Under the pieces are notes generated by a model. The model was not told the origin of the DNA and searched no databases. It saw only the letters and a list, made by a program, of their open reading frames with translations. Of a stretch of 13,839 nucleotides of DNA, positions 5,880 through 13,839 are shown in pieces (positions within the stretch are counted from its first letter, which is position 1; the number at the start of each line of letters is the position of its first letter). Position numbers and translations under genes: made by a program. The stretch is from Candidatus Hermodarchaeota archaeon (GTDB lineage: Archaea > Asgardarchaeota > Lokiarchaeia > Sigyniarchaeales > SOKP01): positions 1 through 13,839 of the forward strand of contig JBHLLG010000073.1 in NCBI GenBank assembly GCA_048885925.1, written 5' to 3'.

Positions 5880-6719
5880 TTATTTCACAAATTTTTGTCT
5901 AAATGATTCAATAGTGTGTGAAATCTCTTCAATATAAAGTTTTAAATCTTTTGGATGGAGGGCTTTTAACTTATCAATATTCTCAATAATATTTTTTAAT
6001 TCATCAATCCATAAGTTTACTAGAATTTGTTTTTCTTTATTTTTGCAGGCTAGTTTAATTTCATCATTAATCAATTCTTTAGTACTTTCGAATATCTGTT
6101 TTTTTTGCACGTCAAGGGTTATTTTAACTAAATCTTGTTTACTTTTAATATCCTCTAAGATTGGTTTTAGATTATTCTGAAATTCTGAGTTCTCTTCATC
6201 GAATTTTTTAAACATATCTCTAAGAACCTCCTCTTTAGTATCAAATTCTTCCTTTAAATTCTTTAGTTTTAATGAAAAATCCTCATTACTTGTCTTGATT
6301 TTATCTATAAGAGACTTAATATCATGCTCAAGATTAACTACATTTGTGTTTAATTTCTGATTAATTTCGCTAAATTTCTCTTCCATATGAGTATTAAGTA
6401 TTTGAAAATTCTCTTCTAACTTTCTATTAAGCGTAGAAAATTTTTCTTTTAATTCTTCTTCAAATGTATAGGCTAAATCTTTAATTTTTGTAGTAGTAGC
6501 ATTTTGTTGACTTTCTAATTTTTGATCTACTTGCTTGAATTGATCTTTAAATTTCTGATCTAAATTATTAAATTGTTCAATTGATTTCGTTTCAAGGGTA
6601 TTAATTTGATCAATAGCTTTGAGTTCTGATTTTTTAAGTTGTTCACTTAACTTCTGATCGAGTTTAGAAACTTGGTCCTTTAATTTTTGGAAGTCTTTTA
6701 AAGAAATCTCTTCAGAAAT
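5880..6719 (-). CDS. 279-aa alpha-helical protein with eleven tandem 11-residue repeats; proposed ATT start at 6719 (ORF track gives only the last 168 aa)
   Basis: Frame is open for 111 codons upstream of ATG 6386, up to TAA at 6722-6720; context AGGTGAAATAA-ATT-TCT-GAA-GAG; repeat register runs unbroken through the internal Met. Confidence 0.8.
   Translation of the reverse strand: MSEEISLKDFQKLKDQVSKLDQKLSEQLKKSELKAIDQINTLETKSIEQFNNLDQKFKDQFKQVDQKLESQQNATTTKIKDLAYTFEEELKEKFSTLNRKLEENFQILNTHMEEKFSEINQKLNTNVVNLEHDIKSLIDKIKTSNEDFSLKLKNLKEEFDTKEEVLRDMFKKFDEENSEFQNNLKPILEDIKSKQDLVKITLDVQKKQIFESTKELINDEIKLACKNKEKQILVNLWIDELKNIIENIDKLKALHPKDLKLYIEEISHTIESFRQKFVK
6324..6686 (-). repeat. Protein-level tandem hendecad (11 aa / 33 nt) repeats, 11 units
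   Basis: KLKDQVSKLDQ/KLSEQLKKSEL/KAIDQINTLET/KSIEQFNNLDQ/KFKDQFKQVDQ/KLESQQNATTT/KIKDLAYTFEE/ELKEKFSTLNR/KLEENFQILNT/HMEEKFSEINQ/KLNTNVVNLEH. Confidence 0.8.
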
Positions 6720-6723
6720 TTAT

Positions 6724-6730
6724 TTCACCT
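6724..6730 (-). promoter_or_regulatory. Shine-Dalgarno-like motif AGGTGA upstream of ATT 6719
   Basis: Matches the archaeal GGAGGTGA consensus, 5 nt before the ATT codon. Confidence 0.65.
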
Positions 6731-6765
6731 TTTAATTTCTTTTTAAATTATTCCTTTTTAACTTT

Positions 6766-7806
6766 TTAAGCAATTATTTCATTCTTTTCAGTTTTTAATT
6801 GTTCTTTTTTAAAATCTGAAATAATTTTTACTAATTCAAATTCTTCTCGATTTAATTTTAATGCTAAATCTGAGATCTTCTCAAAGTCTTTCTTTGCTAA
6901 TGTTAAAAGACCAGTTAAATTATTAATTGTTTCTTCTACTGATTTGGTCTTTTTTAAATGTTTAATCGATTTATCAAATTCGGTTAAATTAATTAAAAAT
7001 TGATCCATAGCATTTGTAATTTGAATTTCATTGTTTTGTAACTCATTTTTAAGAAATTCATAATATTTTAAATCTTTATCTTCTTTCTTGTGATTTGCAT
7101 CCTTTTTAACCTTTAATTTTGGCTTTAATTTTTGAAAATATGAATCTATGTTGGTTACATTTAATAATTTGCTTTTTATTGTTTTTTCATCTTTTCCAAT
7201 TAATCTTAAAAAATCTGTAGCTGTATTATTTTGAACAAGATTAGGCATGATTATTTCTGCTTTTCGTAGAAATGTAAAAATTACTAACTCAAAGCATTCA
7301 TTAATATTTTCACCGGTCTTCGCTGAGACTAAATAAAGATGGTCTATTTTGGTTAATAATTCTTTTATAGCAGTTATCGCAAGCTTTTTCTCTTCAAGTA
7401 AATCCAATTTATTTCCAATGAAAAGGACTAAAACATCTTCAGAAAATTGATTTATATTTTTTAAAAATTCATTTTTAATACTTTTTAAGGTTTCTTTTGG
7501 TTTTGTTAAATCAAAAACTAAAAGAGCAATATCCACATTGGAATAATGATTAGCATTAAATGGATTAAATGACTTTTGACCTCCTAAATCCCAAATGTTA
7601 ATACCTATAATCGTTTGTTTCTTTTTTATTATATAATCTTTTCGATGAGTAATAGTTCCAATTGTTGGAATATATCTCTCTGGTATCTCTTTTCCTAAAA
7701 ATCTATCTATAATTGAAGTTTTCCCTACTTCTCCATCTCCAAGAGAAACTAATTTTAAATTAATTTTTTTATCCAAGTTAAAAGTCGCCAAACAATGAAA
7801 TTTCAA
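6766..7806 (-). CDS. Ras-superfamily (Rab-like) small GTPase with a ~165-aa helical/coiled-coil C-terminal extension
   Basis: G1 GDGEVGKT, G2 YIPTIG, G3 IWDLGGQ, G4 GNKLD, G5 SAKTGENI. Start uncertain (TTG at 7806, 7791 or 7776). No CaaX/CC prenylation motif. Confidence 0.92.
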   Translation of the reverse strand: MKFHCLATFNLDKKINLKLVSLGDGEVGKTSIIDRFLGKEIPERYIPTIGTITHRKDYIIKKKQTIIGINIWDLGGQKSFNPFNANHYSNVDIALLVFDLTKPKETLKSIKNEFLKNINQFSEDVLVLFIGNKLDLLEEKKLAITAIKELLTKIDHLYLVSAKTGENINECFELVIFTFLRKAEIIMPNLVQNNTATDFLRLIGKDEKTIKSKLLNVTNIDSYFQKLKPKLKVKKDANHKKEDKDLKYYEFLKNELQNNEIQITNAMDQFLINLTEFDKSIKHLKKTKSVEETINNLTGLLTLAKKDFEKISDLALKLNREEFELVKIISDFKKEQLKTEKNEIIA

Positions 7807-8080
7807 AGAATTAATATGTAAACTTTATAATAACTTTTAAAATGTTAACAAAATATGTTTTAATTTATTAATTCATAAAGAAACTAATATTTAAGTTCTC
7901 CTTAATAAAAAGTAGTTTTATCATATCTTTTTTTAGTTAAATCAATGTTTCTTTAAAGAATCAAATATCAAACTAATCATTTTTAAAGAGTATCAAACTT
8001 TATATTATTTTTTTATTTTTCACAATCAATATTATAATATTATTATAAATATTAAAACGAGTTAAAAGTGGTATAAGAAA

Positions 8081-9118
8081 ATGGGTTTACAGACAGACAT
8101 AACTGAAATGTTTGGAATTAAGCATCCAATTGTTGCTGCTCCTATGGGACCGTTTTATACAAAAGAATTAACTGTAGCAGTCTCTGAAGCAGGAGGATTA
8201 GGAGTTCTGAGTCATACTAATCTATTTGGAAAGAGTAGTTTGGAAGAAATGAAAAAAGATATGGAGTATGTGGTAGAATATACCGACAAACCTTTTGGAT
8301 TTAATATAAGAACATCAAGATTACAATTAGATGCTCCTGGACTATGTCGTGGGATATCAAAATTTATTATGGATAATCCAAAAATAAAAGAACAGTGTGT
8401 TTATGCTGTTACAAGCGCTGGTTCGGCAAAAACTTTACCCAAGACTAAGACATACCAAAAATTAAAGGAAGGCGGTTCAAATATAAAACATTTCCATGTA
8501 GCGCCCGCACTATGGCTTGCAGATAAATGTGTATCAGCTGAAACTGATGGTATGGTCATAACCGGTTGGGAAGGAGGAGGGCATCAAAGTTATGAAAGAA
8601 TTAGTACTTTAGTCTTATTACAGCAAGTTAAAAGAAAACATCCAAACACTCCAATAATAGCATGTGGTGGTTTTGCGAGTGGAGAAGGTTTAGCTTCCGC
8701 TTTAGCAATGGGAGCAGGTGGTATAGCAATGGGTTCAAGGTTCATTGCTTCAAAAGAAAGTGAATTTCATGAAAAATATAAAAATGTAATACCTCCCGCA
8801 AAAGCAAGCGATACTGAATATTGTTTAGGAGTGCTTGGTCCAATAAGGTTATGGCGTAATAAATATGCCCTTTCTCATAATCCTGTTACGAGTAAAGAAG
8901 AAAAGTTAGCTTTAGAGGCAAAAATAACGCCTCAAATGGCAATGGAAGACCAAAAGCATTATGAAATGACATATAAAGGTAATATAGATGAAGGGGCTGT
9001 ACTTTTAGGTCAGAGTATTGGCCTAATTGATTCGATAGACAGTGTAAAAGATATTATAGAAGAAATTGTCATTGATGCTGAAAAAAGGCTAAAAGAAGTA
9101 AGTTCTTATATAATATAA
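8081..9118 (+). CDS. Nitronate monooxygenase / FabK-like FMN-dependent oxidoreductase
   Basis: FGIKHPIVAAPM, AVSEAGGLG, TDKPFGFNI, GWEGGGH (catalytic His), PIIACGG, ALAMGAGGIAMGSRF, GQSIGLI. Confidence 0.92.
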   Translation: MGLQTDITEMFGIKHPIVAAPMGPFYTKELTVAVSEAGGLGVLSHTNLFGKSSLEEMKKDMEYVVEYTDKPFGFNIRTSRLQLDAPGLCRGISKFIMDNPKIKEQCVYAVTSAGSAKTLPKTKTYQKLKEGGSNIKHFHVAPALWLADKCVSAETDGMVITGWEGGGHQSYERISTLVLLQQVKRKHPNTPIIACGGFASGEGLASALAMGAGGIAMGSRFIASKESEFHEKYKNVIPPAKASDTEYCLGVLGPIRLWRNKYALSHNPVTSKEEKLALEAKITPQMAMEDQKHYEMTYKGNIDEGAVLLGQSIGLIDSIDSVKDIIEEIVIDAEKRLKEVSSYII

Positions 9119-9143
9119 ATTATTTATATTTTCCTTAAATACA

Positions 9144-9160
9144 TATATTTTTTTTCCTTT
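9144..9160 (+). terminator. Possible oligo-T archaeal terminator after the NMO gene
   Basis: T-rich tract about 30 nt after the stop at 9118. Confidence 0.35.
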
Positions 9161-9197
9161 ATTCAATTAGCTTTTAAATTAATCAGGTTTTGAGAAA

Positions 9198-9437
9198 ATG
9201 AATTCTAGAAAGAAAATTGAATTAATTTCTGAAATTTTAGATCGATATGATGATGGAGTTTGCTTTTATTGTGCAAGCACCTTAAATGGTGATCTGGAAG
9301 ATGATGATTTTGATAATGGTTATCCTGAAGATTGGTGCCCTGATTGTTGCGAAAGTATTGACCCTGATGATGATTGGGAGGATGCTTGTTTAAAAGCAAT
9401 AGATAAAGTAATCCATGATGAAAAATTTCAACCATAA
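9198..9437 (+). CDS. Small, very acidic CxxC-x21-CxxCC protein (putative Zn/Fe-binding), function unknown
   Basis: 79 aa, ATG start, 24 Asp/Glu and 6 Cys; fills the gap between two co-oriented genes. Confidence 0.8.
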   Translation: MNSRKKIELISEILDRYDDGVCFYCASTLNGDLEDDDFDNGYPEDWCPDCCESIDPDDDWEDACLKAIDKVIHDEKFQP

Positions 9438-9454
9438 TTAAAAGTTGAGGATAA

Positions 9455-10285
9455 GTGGTAGTTTTAACAACAAAAACTCTTCTTGAAGGATTAGGTTTTA
9501 CAGAAAGCCCCCGTTGGCATAATGATAAACTTTGGTTTTCTGATATGGATGCACATAAAGTAATGACTGTAGATCTAAATGGAAACGTGGAAAAAATTTT
9601 AGAGATATCGAATCGAACTTCTGGATTGGGCTGGTTACCTGATGGAAGGTTATTAGTTGTTTCAATGGAAGATAGTAAAATACTTCGTCTTGATCCTGAA
9701 GGATTAACAGAACATGCAGACTTGAGTGGTCTTGCCGCTTTAAACTGCAATGATATGGTTGTTGATGATAAAGGGAGAGCTTATGTAGGAAATATGGGTT
9801 TTGATTTTTTTAGCCCCAAACCAAGTTTTACTCCCGCTGAAATTATTCTTGTAGACCCAGAAGGAGATGCTAAAATTGTTGCCGACAACTTAGCTTTCCC
9901 CAATGGGATGGTTATTACTCCAGATGGTAAAACTCTTATTGTTGGAGAAACTTTTGCTGTACGCCTTACAGCATTTAATATAAGAGAAGATGGTTCTCTC
10001 ACAGATCGTAGACTATGGGCCAATCTTAAGACTATTGCTCCTGACGGAATATGTCTAGATGCAGAAGGTGCGATTTGGGTTTCTGCTCCAGGACGTCATA
10101 GAGTTGCGCGCATACTTGAAGGTGGTAAAATTACTCATAAAGTTAAAATTGAGACCGATGCTTATGCTTGTATGCTTGGTGGACCTAACCGAGACATCCT
10201 TTTTATAGCAACATCCACTCCTGAAAGGATAAATGGACGGATAGAATATGTAAAGGTAGATATACCTGGTGCTGGTTTACCTTAA
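9455..10285 (+). CDS. SMP-30/gluconolactonase/LRE family beta-propeller protein
   Basis: LGFTESPRWH, LWFSDM, NCNDMVVD, LAFPNGMVIT, PDGICLDAEGAIWV, LGGPNRDILFI; GTG start with GAGG upstream. Confidence 0.93.
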   Translation: MVVLTTKTLLEGLGFTESPRWHNDKLWFSDMDAHKVMTVDLNGNVEKILEISNRTSGLGWLPDGRLLVVSMEDSKILRLDPEGLTEHADLSGLAALNCNDMVVDDKGRAYVGNMGFDFFSPKPSFTPAEIILVDPEGDAKIVADNLAFPNGMVITPDGKTLIVGETFAVRLTAFNIREDGSLTDRRLWANLKTIAPDGICLDAEGAIWVSAPGRHRVARILEGGKITHKVKIETDAYACMLGGPNRDILFIATSTPERINGRIEYVKVDIPGAGLP

Positions 10286-10338
10286 TATCTTAACAAAATG
10301 AATCACAAATAAAAAGTTATTAGAAATTTTTAATAAAA

Positions 10339-10815
10339 ATGAGTGAAAACAGAAAAGAAATCGCACCATATGACTATATAGAATATTTCGAGAGAAATAC
10401 AGCCTTAATGGTAACTATGGATAAAGGTGAAAAACTTAATGTTATGGCTCTAGATTGGAAGAAACTATTTGATTATAAAGGCAAACCAACAATTCGGGTT
10501 CAAGTAGCATATAGCCGATATACCTATACTTGTGTTACTGAAGGAGAAAAAGAATTTACAATAAATATTCCCTCTGATAAAATATCTGATGCTATTGATA
10601 TTGCAGGATCATATTCAGGGAGAAGTAAAAACAAAATTAAAATGGCGGGTTTGGAAGTTATTCCAAGCAGAACTACTAAAGTTCCTACTCTAAAACATTG
10701 TCTTTTAAATTATGAATGCAAAATTATTTACAATGAAAAGTCAAACATGAGTAGTCATCACTATTTTTATGGAAATATCTTAGCTGCTTATGCTTCTAAT
10801 GAAATTAAAAATTAA
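10339..10815 (+). CDS. Flavin reductase-like FMN-binding split-barrel protein (flavoredoxin-like)
   Basis: LNVMALDW, SRYT, EFTINIP, AGSYSGR..NK, KVPTL, YECKI, HHYFYGNI match the family layout. Confidence 0.85.
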   Translation: MSENRKEIAPYDYIEYFERNTALMVTMDKGEKLNVMALDWKKLFDYKGKPTIRVQVAYSRYTYTCVTEGEKEFTINIPSDKISDAIDIAGSYSGRSKNKIKMAGLEVIPSRTTKVPTLKHCLLNYECKIIYNEKSNMSSHHYFYGNILAAYASNEIKN

Positions 10816-10829
10816 ACTTTTAACTTATT

Positions 10830-11246
10830 TTAAATTTCTTTTTCACAGAAACACACTGAACTACTTAAAATCTTTTCACCACAAGGGCATTCTTCAGGAT
10901 GATCATATTTTTCACAGATTTTATTTATTGTTTCACATGAAAAGAGTAAACTAAATTTATCACTTTCAATGTGAGCTATAGTTCGATCGAGTCCTAACTC
11001 GTAATGTAATAGAAGTTCCAGCAGCCTGCTATGCCGATTCAACTCTTTTGCCAATTCAATACCCTCTTTAGTTAAATTTACTTCATGATATGGCTCATAA
11101 TTAACAAAATTGCGCTGTTGAAGTCGTTTAATACAACTACCAAGGGTGGAATGTGGTATATTTAACTCTTTTTTTATTTCACCAATTTTCATCGACTTAT
11201 GTGATTTAAATAAAAATTTAATAACTTGGCAATCCAAATCTAACAT
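10830..11246 (-). CDS. DtxR/MntR-family metal-dependent transcriptional regulator (no SH3-like domain)
   Basis: Winged HTH (IGEIKKELNIPHSTL...RL...FVNYEPYHEVNLTKEG), RHSRLLELLL..LG, HPEECPCG; strong GGAGGAG SD. Confidence 0.88.
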   Translation of the reverse strand: MLDLDCQVIKFLFKSHKSMKIGEIKKELNIPHSTLGSCIKRLQQRNFVNYEPYHEVNLTKEGIELAKELNRHSRLLELLLHYELGLDRTIAHIESDKFSLLFSCETINKICEKYDHPEECPCGEKILSSSVCFCEKEI

Positions 11247-11276
11247 TTTTTAAACTCCTCCATTGTTATTGAATGA

Positions 11277-12035
11277 TTAATGTTCATGTCCTCCAAGTGT
11301 TAATATAGTTCCCATAATGATAATACCTAACATCACTAAAATCAATTGTTTTATGATTTCTTTCGTATCTGTCTTTTCATGTAATTTTGGTGTTAAATCC
11401 GATAATGCTATATAAATAAAACTGGCTGATGAGATTGCTAAAAATATTGGTGTGAGAAATTCAAAAATACCAATAATGTAATAGCTAATAATAGCAGCAG
11501 GTATTGTAGATAGACTGGATATTAAATTATAGATAAATGCTTTTTTTTTTATCATTCCACTGTGAATAAGTATGCCAAAATCGCCTATCTCCTGAGGAAT
11601 TTCATGAATTATTATTGTTATGCCAATTGCAATACCGATATTAAAATCTGTAATAAAGGCAGTTGCAATAAGAATTCCATCTGTAAAATTGTGAAAAGCA
11701 TCCCCTACAAGAATTATTGGTGCTGAAGCATAACTGTGAACATCACAACTGTTATTTTGGCAATTTCGCCAAATTACAAATTTCTCTAAGAAAAAGAAAA
11801 ATAGAATACTTCCTAATACAAAATACATTAATGAATGAGGATCACCTGCCCAACTCTCGATCGCTTCAGGAATTAAACCTAAAAATGAAGCAGTAAGTAA
11901 TACACCTGTAGCAAATGAAATTAAAGCAGAAACAATAACTTTTTGTATATTTTCATTAAAGCGAATGAATCCTGAAGCTGCAAGTATAGCCCCTACACTT
12001 CCTAAAACAGCAAATAAGATTATCCACAGAAAAAT
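11277..12035 (-). CDS. ZIP-family (ZupT/GufA-like) divalent metal transporter, 252 aa; proposed ATT start at 12035 (alternative CTG 12029)
   Basis: TM4 GDAFHNFTDG and TM5 HEIPQEIGDF. Upstream 69 open codons encode TM1-TM2 including LISFATGVLLTASFLGLIPEA, which the 183-aa ORF lacks. Confidence 0.9.
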   Translation of the reverse strand: MFLWIILFAVLGSVGAILAASGFIRFNENIQKVIVSALISFATGVLLTASFLGLIPEAIESWAGDPHSLMYFVLGSILFFFFLEKFVIWRNCQNNSCDVHSYASAPIILVGDAFHNFTDGILIATAFITDFNIGIAIGITIIIHEIPQEIGDFGILIHSGMIKKKAFIYNLISSLSTIPAAIISYYIIGIFEFLTPIFLAISSASFIYIALSDLTPKLHEKTDTKEIIKQLILVMLGIIIMGTILTLGGHEH

Positions 12036-12098
12036 TTCTTATCACTTCCATTAAATCAAAAATTGTTCTTTTTAATCTAATTTCAAAAGATTCTTAAA

Positions 12099-12118
12099 TT
12101 TTACGAATATTCGTAAAA
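12099..12118. promoter_or_regulatory. Perfect 20-bp palindrome TTTTACGAAT/ATTCGTAAAA, candidate operator for the DtxR-family regulator
   Basis: Exact dyad 64 nt upstream of the ZIP start, in the divergent ZIP/SCP2 intergenic region. Confidence 0.65.
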
Positions 12119-12252
12119 AATCTTTTTCTTAAAAAAATTAGTTTGAAATTCAATTCCTATTCATTATTAGAATTTTTTTATTCGAAGATTATATATAATA
12201 TTTAAAGTATTCTTCATAAATAGAATATAGAAAAGAGGGGTAGAAAAGGAAA

Positions 12253-12705
12253 GTGGTAAAAGTAAAATATGGAACTCAAGAGTTTGTGGATGCTTATCGT
12301 GATGCTCTTAATAAAAATGAAAATTATAAAGATGCTGCCGCTGATTGGGAAGGTGACTTTCTCTGGGTAGCTACTCCAAACGGACCATTAAAAGAAGAAC
12401 AGAGAATGTGGATTGGACTCTATCATGGTAAATGTACAGGTTGTAAGGTATTAAATCCAAAAGATAAAGTAAAATTATTAAAACCAGGAGAAAAAAAGAG
12501 TGGAGAAGGTTATGAAGTTGAATATATATACACTACTGATTATGAAACATGGAAAAAAATCACTTTAGGAGAAGCTGATTCTATTAGAATGATATTAAGT
12601 GGTAAAGCAAAACTCGAAGGCAATATGGCAAAAGTTCTGAAATATACTAGAGCAGCTACAGAGCTGACAGTTTCTGCTCAAAAGCTTGATATAGAATGGC
12701 TCTAA
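12253..12705 (+). CDS. SCP2 sterol/lipid-binding domain protein
   Basis: LNKNENYKDAAADWEGDF, IGLYHGKC, DYETWKKITLGEADSIRMILSGKAKLEGNMAKVLK match the SCP2 pattern; GTG start. Confidence 0.85.
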   Translation: MVKVKYGTQEFVDAYRDALNKNENYKDAAADWEGDFLWVATPNGPLKEEQRMWIGLYHGKCTGCKVLNPKDKVKLLKPGEKKSGEGYEVEYIYTTDYETWKKITLGEADSIRMILSGKAKLEGNMAKVLKYTRAATELTVSAQKLDIEWL

Positions 12706-12788
12706 ATATTATTTATTTTCAAAATTTAATTTTTTAATAATCTTTCATGCAGTTCTTCCTTATATTTTCGAAATTTCTAATATCTCAT

Positions 12789-13016
12789 ATGAGCTCCAAT
12801 TTTATTATTAAGGATCAAAGTAAATCTGACCCCATAAGTATTGTTAAAGGGTATTATGTAAGAGAAATACGAAAAACTGTATTTCTAAAACTTCTTAACG
12901 GAAAATTCATTTGCTTTCCAAAAACTACCATTAACACCGAATTTTCTCATAACAAAGATCAACTTCAAGAATTTATTATCGATGATTGAATTCTACGAAA
13001 ACTTGGTTTAATTTAA
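12789..13016 (+). pseudogene. Small hypothetical protein; frame ends at TGA 12987-12989 or continues (IIDD*ILRKLGLI) to TAA 13016
   Basis: Likely start ATG 12789 (MSSNF...; alternative 12747). Eight further protein-like codons follow the TGA. Truncated versus intact status cannot be decided from sequence alone. Confidence 0.4.
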
Positions 13017-13182
13017 TAATTTGATAAATTTATAGTTAAAAAGACGGAGAAATCAAGTTTCGAGTATTCGTTTCAATTTATAATATCCCTAAAGAATAAA
13101 TCTTGTTAAGAGACCTTAATAATGAGAAAAATCAATTAATGATTAAGGTAAAGTTATTATCTATATTAGAGGTTAATTCATC

Positions 13183-13839
13183 ATTAAGAAACCGCTTATC
13201 TTAACTTGTATAAATTGTGAAAAAAAGTTTGAATTTACCTCTATTCAACATAAATGCCCCGATTGCGAAGGAGTATTATGGTTTGAATCTGATTTAGAGG
13301 TCGTTAAGGGGAAATTCCGAGAAATTAAAGATCCACAGAAGTTTTGGGACTATAAAATAACGTTTCCTCAAATAGAAGAGGATTTTATTATTTCCTTAGG
13401 AGAAGGGGGCACTCCATGTAGAAATTCGAAAAAATATGGAGAAAAAATAGGCTTAGAAAAGTTATTTTTTAAGGATGAAACTCAAAATCCAACTAATTCT
13501 TTTAAAGATCGTGCCGCAGCATTGTTAGTTTCTCACGCTAGGAGTTGGGATTTTGAAAAAATAGTCTGTGCTTCTAATGGGAATCAAGGTGCCTCAATCG
13601 CAGCTTATTCTTCTCTTGAAGGAATCGAATGTTCCAATATAATTCCTAAAGAGATTGATGTTGGGAAAAAAGCTCAAATGATAGCATACAATTCTGATTT
13701 AAAAATTATCGGAGAAACCGTTGATGATGCTATTGATTACGTTTTAAATAACAAAAATTTTGAAGATTATTACCAAGCTACTCCAGAATTAAATCCCCTT
13801 ACATTAGAAGCACAAAAAACTATTGCTTTTGAAATTGTA
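13183..13839 (+). CDS. thrC: Threonine synthase-like fold-type II PLP enzyme, 3'-truncated by the window; absent from the ORF track; proposed ATT 13183 (or ATC 13180) start
   Basis: N-terminal CINC...CPDCEG ribbon, FWDY, ISLGEGGTP, LFFKDETQNPTNSFKDR (PLP Lys at 13504-13506), ASNGNQGASIAAY, NPLTLEAQKTIAFEI. Confidence 0.88.
   Translation, partial: MKKPLILTCINCEKKFEFTSIQHKCPDCEGVLWFESDLEVVKGKFREIKDPQKFWDYKITFPQIEEDFIISLGEGGTPCRNSKKYGEKIGLEKLFFKDETQNPTNSFKDRAAALLVSHARSWDFEKIVCASNGNQGASIAAYSSLEGIECSNIIPKEIDVGKKAQMIAYNSDLKIIGETVDDAIDYVLNNKNFEDYYQATPELNPLTLEAQKTIAFEIV

Follow-up and report, generated by a model that had tools for sequence, protein, structure and literature searches.

Probable Shine-Dalgarno-led translation starts at AUU and related codons in a Candidatus Hermodarchaeota archaeon and its family

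In Escherichia coli, infC, which encodes initiation factor 3 (IF3) and is under translational autocontrol, and pcnB are prominent bacterial examples of AUU starts led by a Shine-Dalgarno (SD) sequence. NCBI genetic code table 11 lists ATT, ATC and ATA among the possible start codons, and common gene finders search only ATG, GTG and TTG. In this study, contig JBHLLG010000073.1 of a Candidatus Hermodarchaeota archaeon (GenBank assembly GCA_048885925.1) was analyzed over its entire length of 13,839 bp, hereafter the window; it is contig C73 of a 3.9-Mb assembly of 181 contigs with a GC content of 29% (G000). Judging from the sequence, three intact genes in the window, for a coiled-coil protein, a ZIP metal transporter and a threonine synthase, very probably start translation at ATT behind a ribosome-binding site (RBS). 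Comparison across the genome and its relatives makes it highly probable that SD-led initiation at AUU, AUA and AUC (together AUH) occurs in this member of the Asgard archaea and throughout its family, and that the three window genes are intact and expressed in this way. Starts at ATT, sometimes at ATA or ATC, are probably used by a few per cent of the genes of this archaeon and of its family.

The arrangement resembles infC in that a near-cognate AUU stands behind an SD, that the gene of a factor policing start codons, here archaeal initiation factor 1 (aIF1), itself uses AUU, and that this use is conserved among relatives. It differs in that the host is an archaeon and aIF1 is a homologue of eukaryotic eIF1, unrelated to IF3, in that the habit spans an estimated few per cent of genes and not one or two, and in that feedback is here inferred. 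Eukaryotic eIF1 is autoregulated through the poor context of its own start codon (Ivanov et al. 2010, as cited in the available excerpts of PMC6237735), and the same excerpts describe aIF1 as destabilizing non-AUG complexes and also mention the feedback loop of eIF1. The factor studied here is homologous, and a weak start on its own mRNA would likewise let a low factor level raise its own synthesis; however, eukaryotes use AUG in a weak Kozak context with scanning, whereas here AUU stands behind an unusual but conserved SD-like sequence, AAGGTTGTGA, with no scanning. The aIF1 of Pyrococcus and Saccharolobus (PMC6237735, PMC6412873, both available in excerpts), which discriminates against non-AUG complexes, is the same factor, and the basic and aromatic residues of its loop 1 are kept here, but it is described there with AUG, GUG and UUG starts, and lineage-wide AUU use is not mentioned in those excerpts. 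According to the excerpts of a 2026 review, SD sequences are rare in Lokiarchaea (PMC12993045), whereas here an SD core was located before a third of the ATG genes and before most of the non-ATG genes. A full-text search of the literature, covering main texts, gave no report of AUU, AUA or AUC as start codons of Asgard archaea, nor any of a weak start in aIF1.

In archaea and eukaryotes, a/eIF1 sets start-codon stringency. A lineage near the eukaryotic stem in which AUU is as frequent as AUG behind strong SDs, and also stands at the start of aIF1, would be a natural system for studying how this stringency is tuned, and could reveal whether feedback of the eIF1 type predates eukaryotes. The reading is directly testable by toeprinting, reporter assays and proteomics.

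Putative ATT starts in the window and their conservation

An earlier note on this DNA had pointed to three sites in the window without a usable ATG, GTG or TTG. Stops, ATT codons and downstream starts were all found as it had claimed (Table 1). At each site an in-frame stop bounded the frame upstream, no ATG, GTG or TTG was located ahead of essential protein parts, and the ATT lay 10-13 bases past the start of a GGTG/GAGGT-type RBS. The SD-like motifs at normal spacing described in the earlier note were thus present, the one of the ZIP gene being partial. Since stops made up 8.9% of intergenic triplets, chance would not be expected to leave 69-111 codons open ahead of the first canonical start.

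Table 1. Coordinates of the putative ATT starts, ribosome-binding sites and coding regions in the window
Feature	Position	Strand	Remarks
Coiled-coil gene, ATT start	6717..6719	-	In-frame TAA 6722-6720 directly upstream
Coiled-coil gene, RBS GGTGA	6725..6729	-	First G to ATT, 10 bases; SD consensus and spacing
Coiled-coil gene, remainder	5880..6716	-	279 codons overall; stop 5882-5880
ZIP metal transporter gene, ATT start	12033..12035	-	In-frame TGA 12044-12042 and TAA 12041-12039, then GAA
ZIP gene, partial RBS GTGAT (AAGTGAT)	12041..12045	-	Orthologues have AGTGA, GGTGA or GAGGT there
ZIP gene, remainder	11277..12032	-	252 residues; stop 11279-11277
Threonine synthase gene, ATT start	13183..13185	+	In-frame TAA 13174-13176, then TTC, ATC, ATT
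Threonine synthase gene, RBS GAGGT	13169..13173	+	Kept in orthologues of G005, G014 and G008
Threonine synthase gene, coding region	13186..13839	+	Zinc ribbon, then pyridoxal phosphate (PLP) domain; extends past window end

In the coiled-coil gene, the first canonical start was an ATG at 6386, 111 codons into the frame, and the start model described below gave the ATT a posterior of 0.80. Its protein had no Pfam family above threshold, a weak sub-threshold match being the only one, and orthologues were found in 15 of 17 genomes of the same genus and none beyond the genus. The first canonical start of the ZIP gene came 69 codons beyond the ATT (posterior 0.64); the protein matched Pfam PF02535 (6.9e-35), and the NCBIfam ZupT model covered residues 14-246. 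In the threonine synthase gene, the next canonical in-frame start was a TTG at 13522, six codons past the Lys of the SFKDR motif, which we take to be the PLP-binding residue. The fragment present in the window matched Pfam PALP (2.5e-32), and threonine synthase models scored highest in NCBIfam. Because profile positions 2-206 of NCBIfam NF004170 aligned to residues 7-218, the protein read from the ATT begins where its family begins.

Orthologues from the same genus were inspected at the homologous codon. For ZIP (n=13), this codon was ATT in six genomes, ATG in four, ATC and TTG in one each and ambiguous in one; for threonine synthase (n=11), it was ATT in seven, ATG in three and ATC in one; for the coiled-coil gene (n=14), it was ATG in three, ATA in two and ATT in one behind an in-frame stop, and ambiguous in eight. 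The frames of the window genes were intact across the genus, with 60-87% identity over their full length; those of threonine synthase orthologues were mostly 479-503 codons long and intact, the G014 locus ending early at 297. Four DNA sequencing runs, from four studies, had contigs spanning the ZIP start, and two had contigs spanning the threonine synthase start. Among the matches listed, the sole indel in 11000-13839 was at 12885 and no substitution was found at the ATT codons. Together, the orthologue codons, the intact genes and the independent contigs without a listed indel at these sites effectively rule out a sequencing error, a frameshift or a pseudogene. A frameshifted or broken gene was rejected for the same reasons, as no indel was listed at the sites in contigs from the four runs and the orthologues share the arrangement. 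An alternative code or read-through was also rejected, since reading through the upstream stops at the ZIP site met no canonical start; no in-frame stops inside conserved coding regions were found in the orthologue matches, single cases elsewhere excepted.

Table 11 formally allows ATT, ATC and ATA, but in practice, of the six public ZIP homologues nearest to the window protein (at least 87% identity; labelled Promethearchaeota, Lokiarchaeota or other Asgard names), five were truncated N-terminally, to 239, 207, 180, 183 and 183 residues versus 252, in line with the truncation by gene callers foreseen in the earlier note. Given ATT starts, standard gene finders limited to ATG, GTG and TTG would shorten or overlook a few per cent of the family's proteins. 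The affected proteins include transporters, enzymes and aIF1, and Asgard protein catalogues and phylogenies would be distorted.

Start-codon use across the genome and in related archaea

Stop-bounded frames of at least 100 codons were collected from G000, with overlapping shadow frames removed (n=3199). At least 40 codons preceded any ATG, GTG or TTG in 97 of the 3199, and inspection of these long-leader frames by eye revealed GGTGA, about six bases and then ATT in many. The SD consensus derived from 1356 confident ATG genes was GGTG at -11 to -8. Codons located 10-11 bases past the first G of GGTG were counted where at least 100 codons were open downstream and a stop occurred within 10 codons upstream; without this last limit, motifs inside genes swamp the histogram. 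The count for ATT (42, phase-matched background 7.7, Poisson p=6e-18) was level with that for ATG (44, background 5.3), and TTG (28, background 2.0), ATA (27, background 9.5, p=3e-6), GTG (7, background 0.5) and ATC (7, background 3.3, p=0.05) followed. ATT was thus enriched 5.5-fold at SD spacing, with a sharp peak at 10-11 bases from the GGTG start, whereas its permutations TAT, TTA and AAT were depleted (3, 3 and 2 versus backgrounds of 4.5, 9.0 and 11.8).

A maximum-likelihood start model was then fitted in which any of the 61 sense codons could be the start; it took account of codon usage, the composition of intergenic DNA, an SD matrix and the spacing. For 3185 frames the shares were ATG.717, TTG.107, ATT.056, GTG.029, ATA.025, AAA.018 and ATC.006. 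ATT was thus commoner than GTG genome-wide and, in the spacing counts, level with ATG behind GGTG at 10-11 bases. At a posterior of at least 0.8, 43 ATT, 17 ATA and 2 ATC starts were called among 2223 genes; at a posterior of at least 0.5, the calls were 106, 37 and 8, respectively, among 2940. An SD core preceded 37 of 43 ATT and 16 of 17 ATA calls (86-94%) versus 627 of 1884 ATG calls (33%). The two GTG and two TTG starts mentioned in the earlier note also fit the model, which has GTG at 9455 and 12253 and TTG at 2858 and 7776 in the window. The proteasome alpha subunit was rejected as a further AUH example, since both of its copies in G000 start at ATG. In a model-free test on the first eight codons of 94 N-free long-leader frames, an SD core at 9-14 bases was found for 19 of 75 ATT codons, the reference for all codons being 78 of 752 (ATT excess, p=7e-5).

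For comparison, 1.2 Mb was taken from each of two complete genomes, G033 of the same genus and G025 of another family of the order. G033 repeated the pattern, with ATG.733, TTG.132, ATT.042, ATA.026 and GTG.020, and behind GGTG at 10-11 bases it had 10 ATT versus 7 ATG. In G025 (GC 31%), ATG had.755, and ATT and ATA (.012 each) were below the noise represented by AAA (.038) and TCA (.021); ATG was found 28 times and ATT 4 times (background 2.7) at the same distance from GGTG. The lack of an ATT signal in this equally AT-rich genome indicates that the method does not create ATT starts. It was also noticed that 28 of 869 frames in G025 had long leaders, a few of them with SD and ATT (L142 + 6338, L103 + 17763). 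Sporadic AUH starts may occur in G025 despite the lack of enrichment.

Starts called in G000 were mapped to G033 through orthologues whose alignment reached the first three residues. Among 543 mapped ATG calls, 469 corresponded to ATG. The 21 mapped ATT calls corresponded to ATT in 11 cases, ATA in 5, ATG in 3 and other codons in 2; the five ATA calls to ATA in 2 and to ATT, ATG and TTG in one each; and the four ATC calls to ATC and ATT in 2 each. AUH-called genes therefore aligned to AUH in 23 of 30 cases, to ATG in 4, to TTG in 1 and to other codons in 2. The ATT enrichment at SD spacing and the intact, conserved frames speak against one of the outcomes that the earlier note had named as refuting it, a lack of ATT-SD enrichment combined with decaying pseudogenes. 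Sequence comparison supports the relaxed, SD-directed start choice across the lineage that it had proposed.

The aIF1 gene and the initiator tRNA

The earlier note had linked the ATT starts to a/eIF1 and suggested inspecting aIF1 and the initiator tRNA. The sole gene found by the SUI1 profile, that of aIF1, was located outside the window (G000:C24:8656-8970; L065 1426-1740) and was itself found to start at ATT, which gives this link a concrete hook; loop 1 of the factor showed no obvious change, and the initiator tRNA was ordinary. After an in-frame TAA the frame reads AAG AGT ATT, followed by the usual zinc knuckle, and the reading frame of 107 codons holds no canonical start until codon 88. 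Within the genus, all 21 genomes readable at this site (our own and 20 others) had ATT as the start, one more genome being masked at the site and two giving no match. The upstream AAGGTTGTGA was nearly invariant in the genus, whereas the pair of codons separating the stop from the ATT varied.

In three other genera of the family, ATT was present in four of five genomes, and the fifth could use GTG or ATA. None of eight genomes of a neighbouring family (f2) had an ATG start for aIF1; TTG was used in four, GTG in two and ATA behind an in-frame TGA in two. Inspection by eye of 30 loci from sixteen further families of the phylum gave ATG in 17, GTG in 6 and TTG in 1, and at the other six (L219, L223-L225, L236 and L239) no canonical start was seen before the zinc knuckle. 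Candidate starts, also by eye, were ATA behind AGGAGG (f11 and f17) and CTG 11 bases past a GGTG start (f6). The aIF1 start is ATT in this family, TTG in G025, which is without the habit, and candidate ATA or CTG elsewhere in Asgard archaea.

In the initiator tRNA, which has A1:U72, the CAU anticodon sits on a stem with three G:C pairs; tRNA-Ile(GAU) was an ordinary elongator. ARAGORN detected 31 tRNA genes in G000, the RNA gene set of the assembly being incomplete, and no initiator-like tRNA with another anticodon was found among these 31. On this basis a special initiator tRNA for AUH was rejected; of the other calls, a second one for tRNA-Met and one for tRNA-Ile appear to be spurious. Loop 1 of aIF1 retained its basic and aromatic residues (R-K-W-G-R).

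Alternative explanations and proposed mechanism

It is extremely improbable that the ATT codons stem from a sequencing or assembly error hiding a true ATG or a one-base indel that would join an upstream canonical start. The genome is a 181-contig assembly, and an out-of-frame ATG (12051) is located 16 bases upstream of the ZIP ATT, beside a run of five Ts (12034-12030). However, many genomes of the genus, assembled independently of one another, had ATT, ATA or ATC at the homologous position, the ZIP orthologues had no comparable upstream ATG, and among the matches listed from the four runs no indel fell at the T run. Decaying pseudogenes, whose starts were lost under AT-biased mutation and which are no longer translated, would fit the GC content of 29%, which favours replacement of the G of ATG by T or A, and the interchange of ATT and ATG states among species. 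Such decay is nevertheless very unlikely, given frames that stay intact at 60-87% identity across the genus, the enrichment of ATT at the exact SD spacing, and the essential aIF1, which has a single close copy and keeps ATT in 21 of 21 genomes though neighbouring codons vary. Initiation at the first downstream ATG or TTG, with the upstream open part left untranslated, is what the public calls for the closest ZIP homologues assume. It would, however, skip about 69 conserved N-terminal residues of ZIP (TM1-TM2 in the earlier note) and drop the zinc ribbon and SFKDR Lys of threonine synthase as well as 88 of 107 aIF1 codons. The skipped parts are conserved at the protein level, their alignment to the family profiles begins at the first positions, and open leaders of 69-111 codons would not be expected at the intergenic stop frequency, so that this explanation has very little probability either.

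Another route to a start near the ATT, namely a neighbouring near-cognate codon, an initiator Ile-tRNA, leaderless (5'-end-dependent) initiation or re-initiation behind the upstream gene, is somewhat less improbable, but still unlikely. In its favour, the 31 tRNAs found are an incomplete set, and the coiled-coil gene lies 47 bases behind a GTPase gene on the same strand; ATC (13180) also sits one codon ahead of the ATT in the threonine synthase gene. On the other hand, where orthologues have ATG, it takes the place of precisely the ATT codon, and spacing from the SD peaks sharply at 10-11 bases. Initiator features were present in a single tRNA, with the anticodon CAU, tRNA-Ile(GAU) being an ordinary elongator, and the ZIP and threonine synthase starts come after intergenic spacers.

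Besides this adjoining ATC, several points weigh against SD-led AUH initiation as preferred here, or against its extent. Of the 14 orthologues of the coiled-coil gene, the eight ambiguous ones have a GTG in frame within the SD, three codons upstream, that could serve as the start; in the window gene the SD-internal GTG is followed by TAA and thus cannot. SD together with AUH within the first eight codons was found in 25 of 94 long-leader frames, so that this strict criterion leaves 69 of 94 unexplained. That AUH needs an SD is partly circular, because the model identifies AUH starts with the help of the SD, and those without an SD are invisible to it. The ATT share of 5.6% is only approximate, because the noise floor of the model is about 1-4% (AAA.018 here). 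A 10-base pattern for the 3' end of 16S rRNA, which carries the anti-SD, gave no rRNA-like match in the assembly. A changed aIF1 loop 1 was rejected as the cause of the relaxed stringency, as the genus has NDTRKWGR and f2 has IDKRKWGR, with no clear loss, and no obvious change was seen relative to the family without the habit.

As for the long-leader frames left unexplained, some look like CTG or ACG candidates (for example C87 + 1843, C8 + 64519), and shadow frames or contaminant DNA may account for others (for example the GC-rich context at C170 - 838).

In the mechanism proposed for SD-led AUH initiation, the small ribosomal subunit would be placed by pairing with a GGTGA-type SD, putting AUU in the P site, and AUU, less often AUA or AUC, would be accepted as the start about 6-7 bases past the SD. 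The ordinary initiator tRNA (CAU) would most likely read AUU with a third-position mismatch and insert Met. AUH starts would give less output than AUG, and AT-biased mutation would feed tolerated ATG-to-ATT and ATG-to-ATA changes. The AUU on aIF1 would probably form a negative feedback loop, as in bacterial infC or eukaryotic eIF1, and hold stringency at a permissive level. That such feedback sets the stringency of the whole lineage, low aIF1 letting AUU starts pass and so yielding more aIF1, is a tentative inference that we consider possible but doubtful. With similar reserve, the steady state of this loop may be so permissive that the family can start several per cent of its genes at AUU, AUA or AUC, as often as at AUG behind strong SDs, and the start codon of aIF1 may predict which near-cognates a lineage tolerates. 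If true, this would make the aIF1 feedback an archaeal precursor of the non-AUG initiation that eIF1 controls in eukaryotes.

Two of the window genes have neighbours on the same strand. A gene with a TTG start at 7776, coding for a small Ras/Roc-like GTPase that ends in a long coiled-coil tail, is located upstream of the coiled-coil gene (7776-5880, minus strand); the pair, consisting of the GTPase gene and the genus-specific gene 47 bases apart, looks like an operon. The ZIP gene is followed by a small gene for an MntR/DtxR-like metal-dependent repressor (12035-10830, minus strand, for the pair), which starts at an ATG (11246) behind GGAGG, and these two look like a metal-uptake operon carrying its own regulator.

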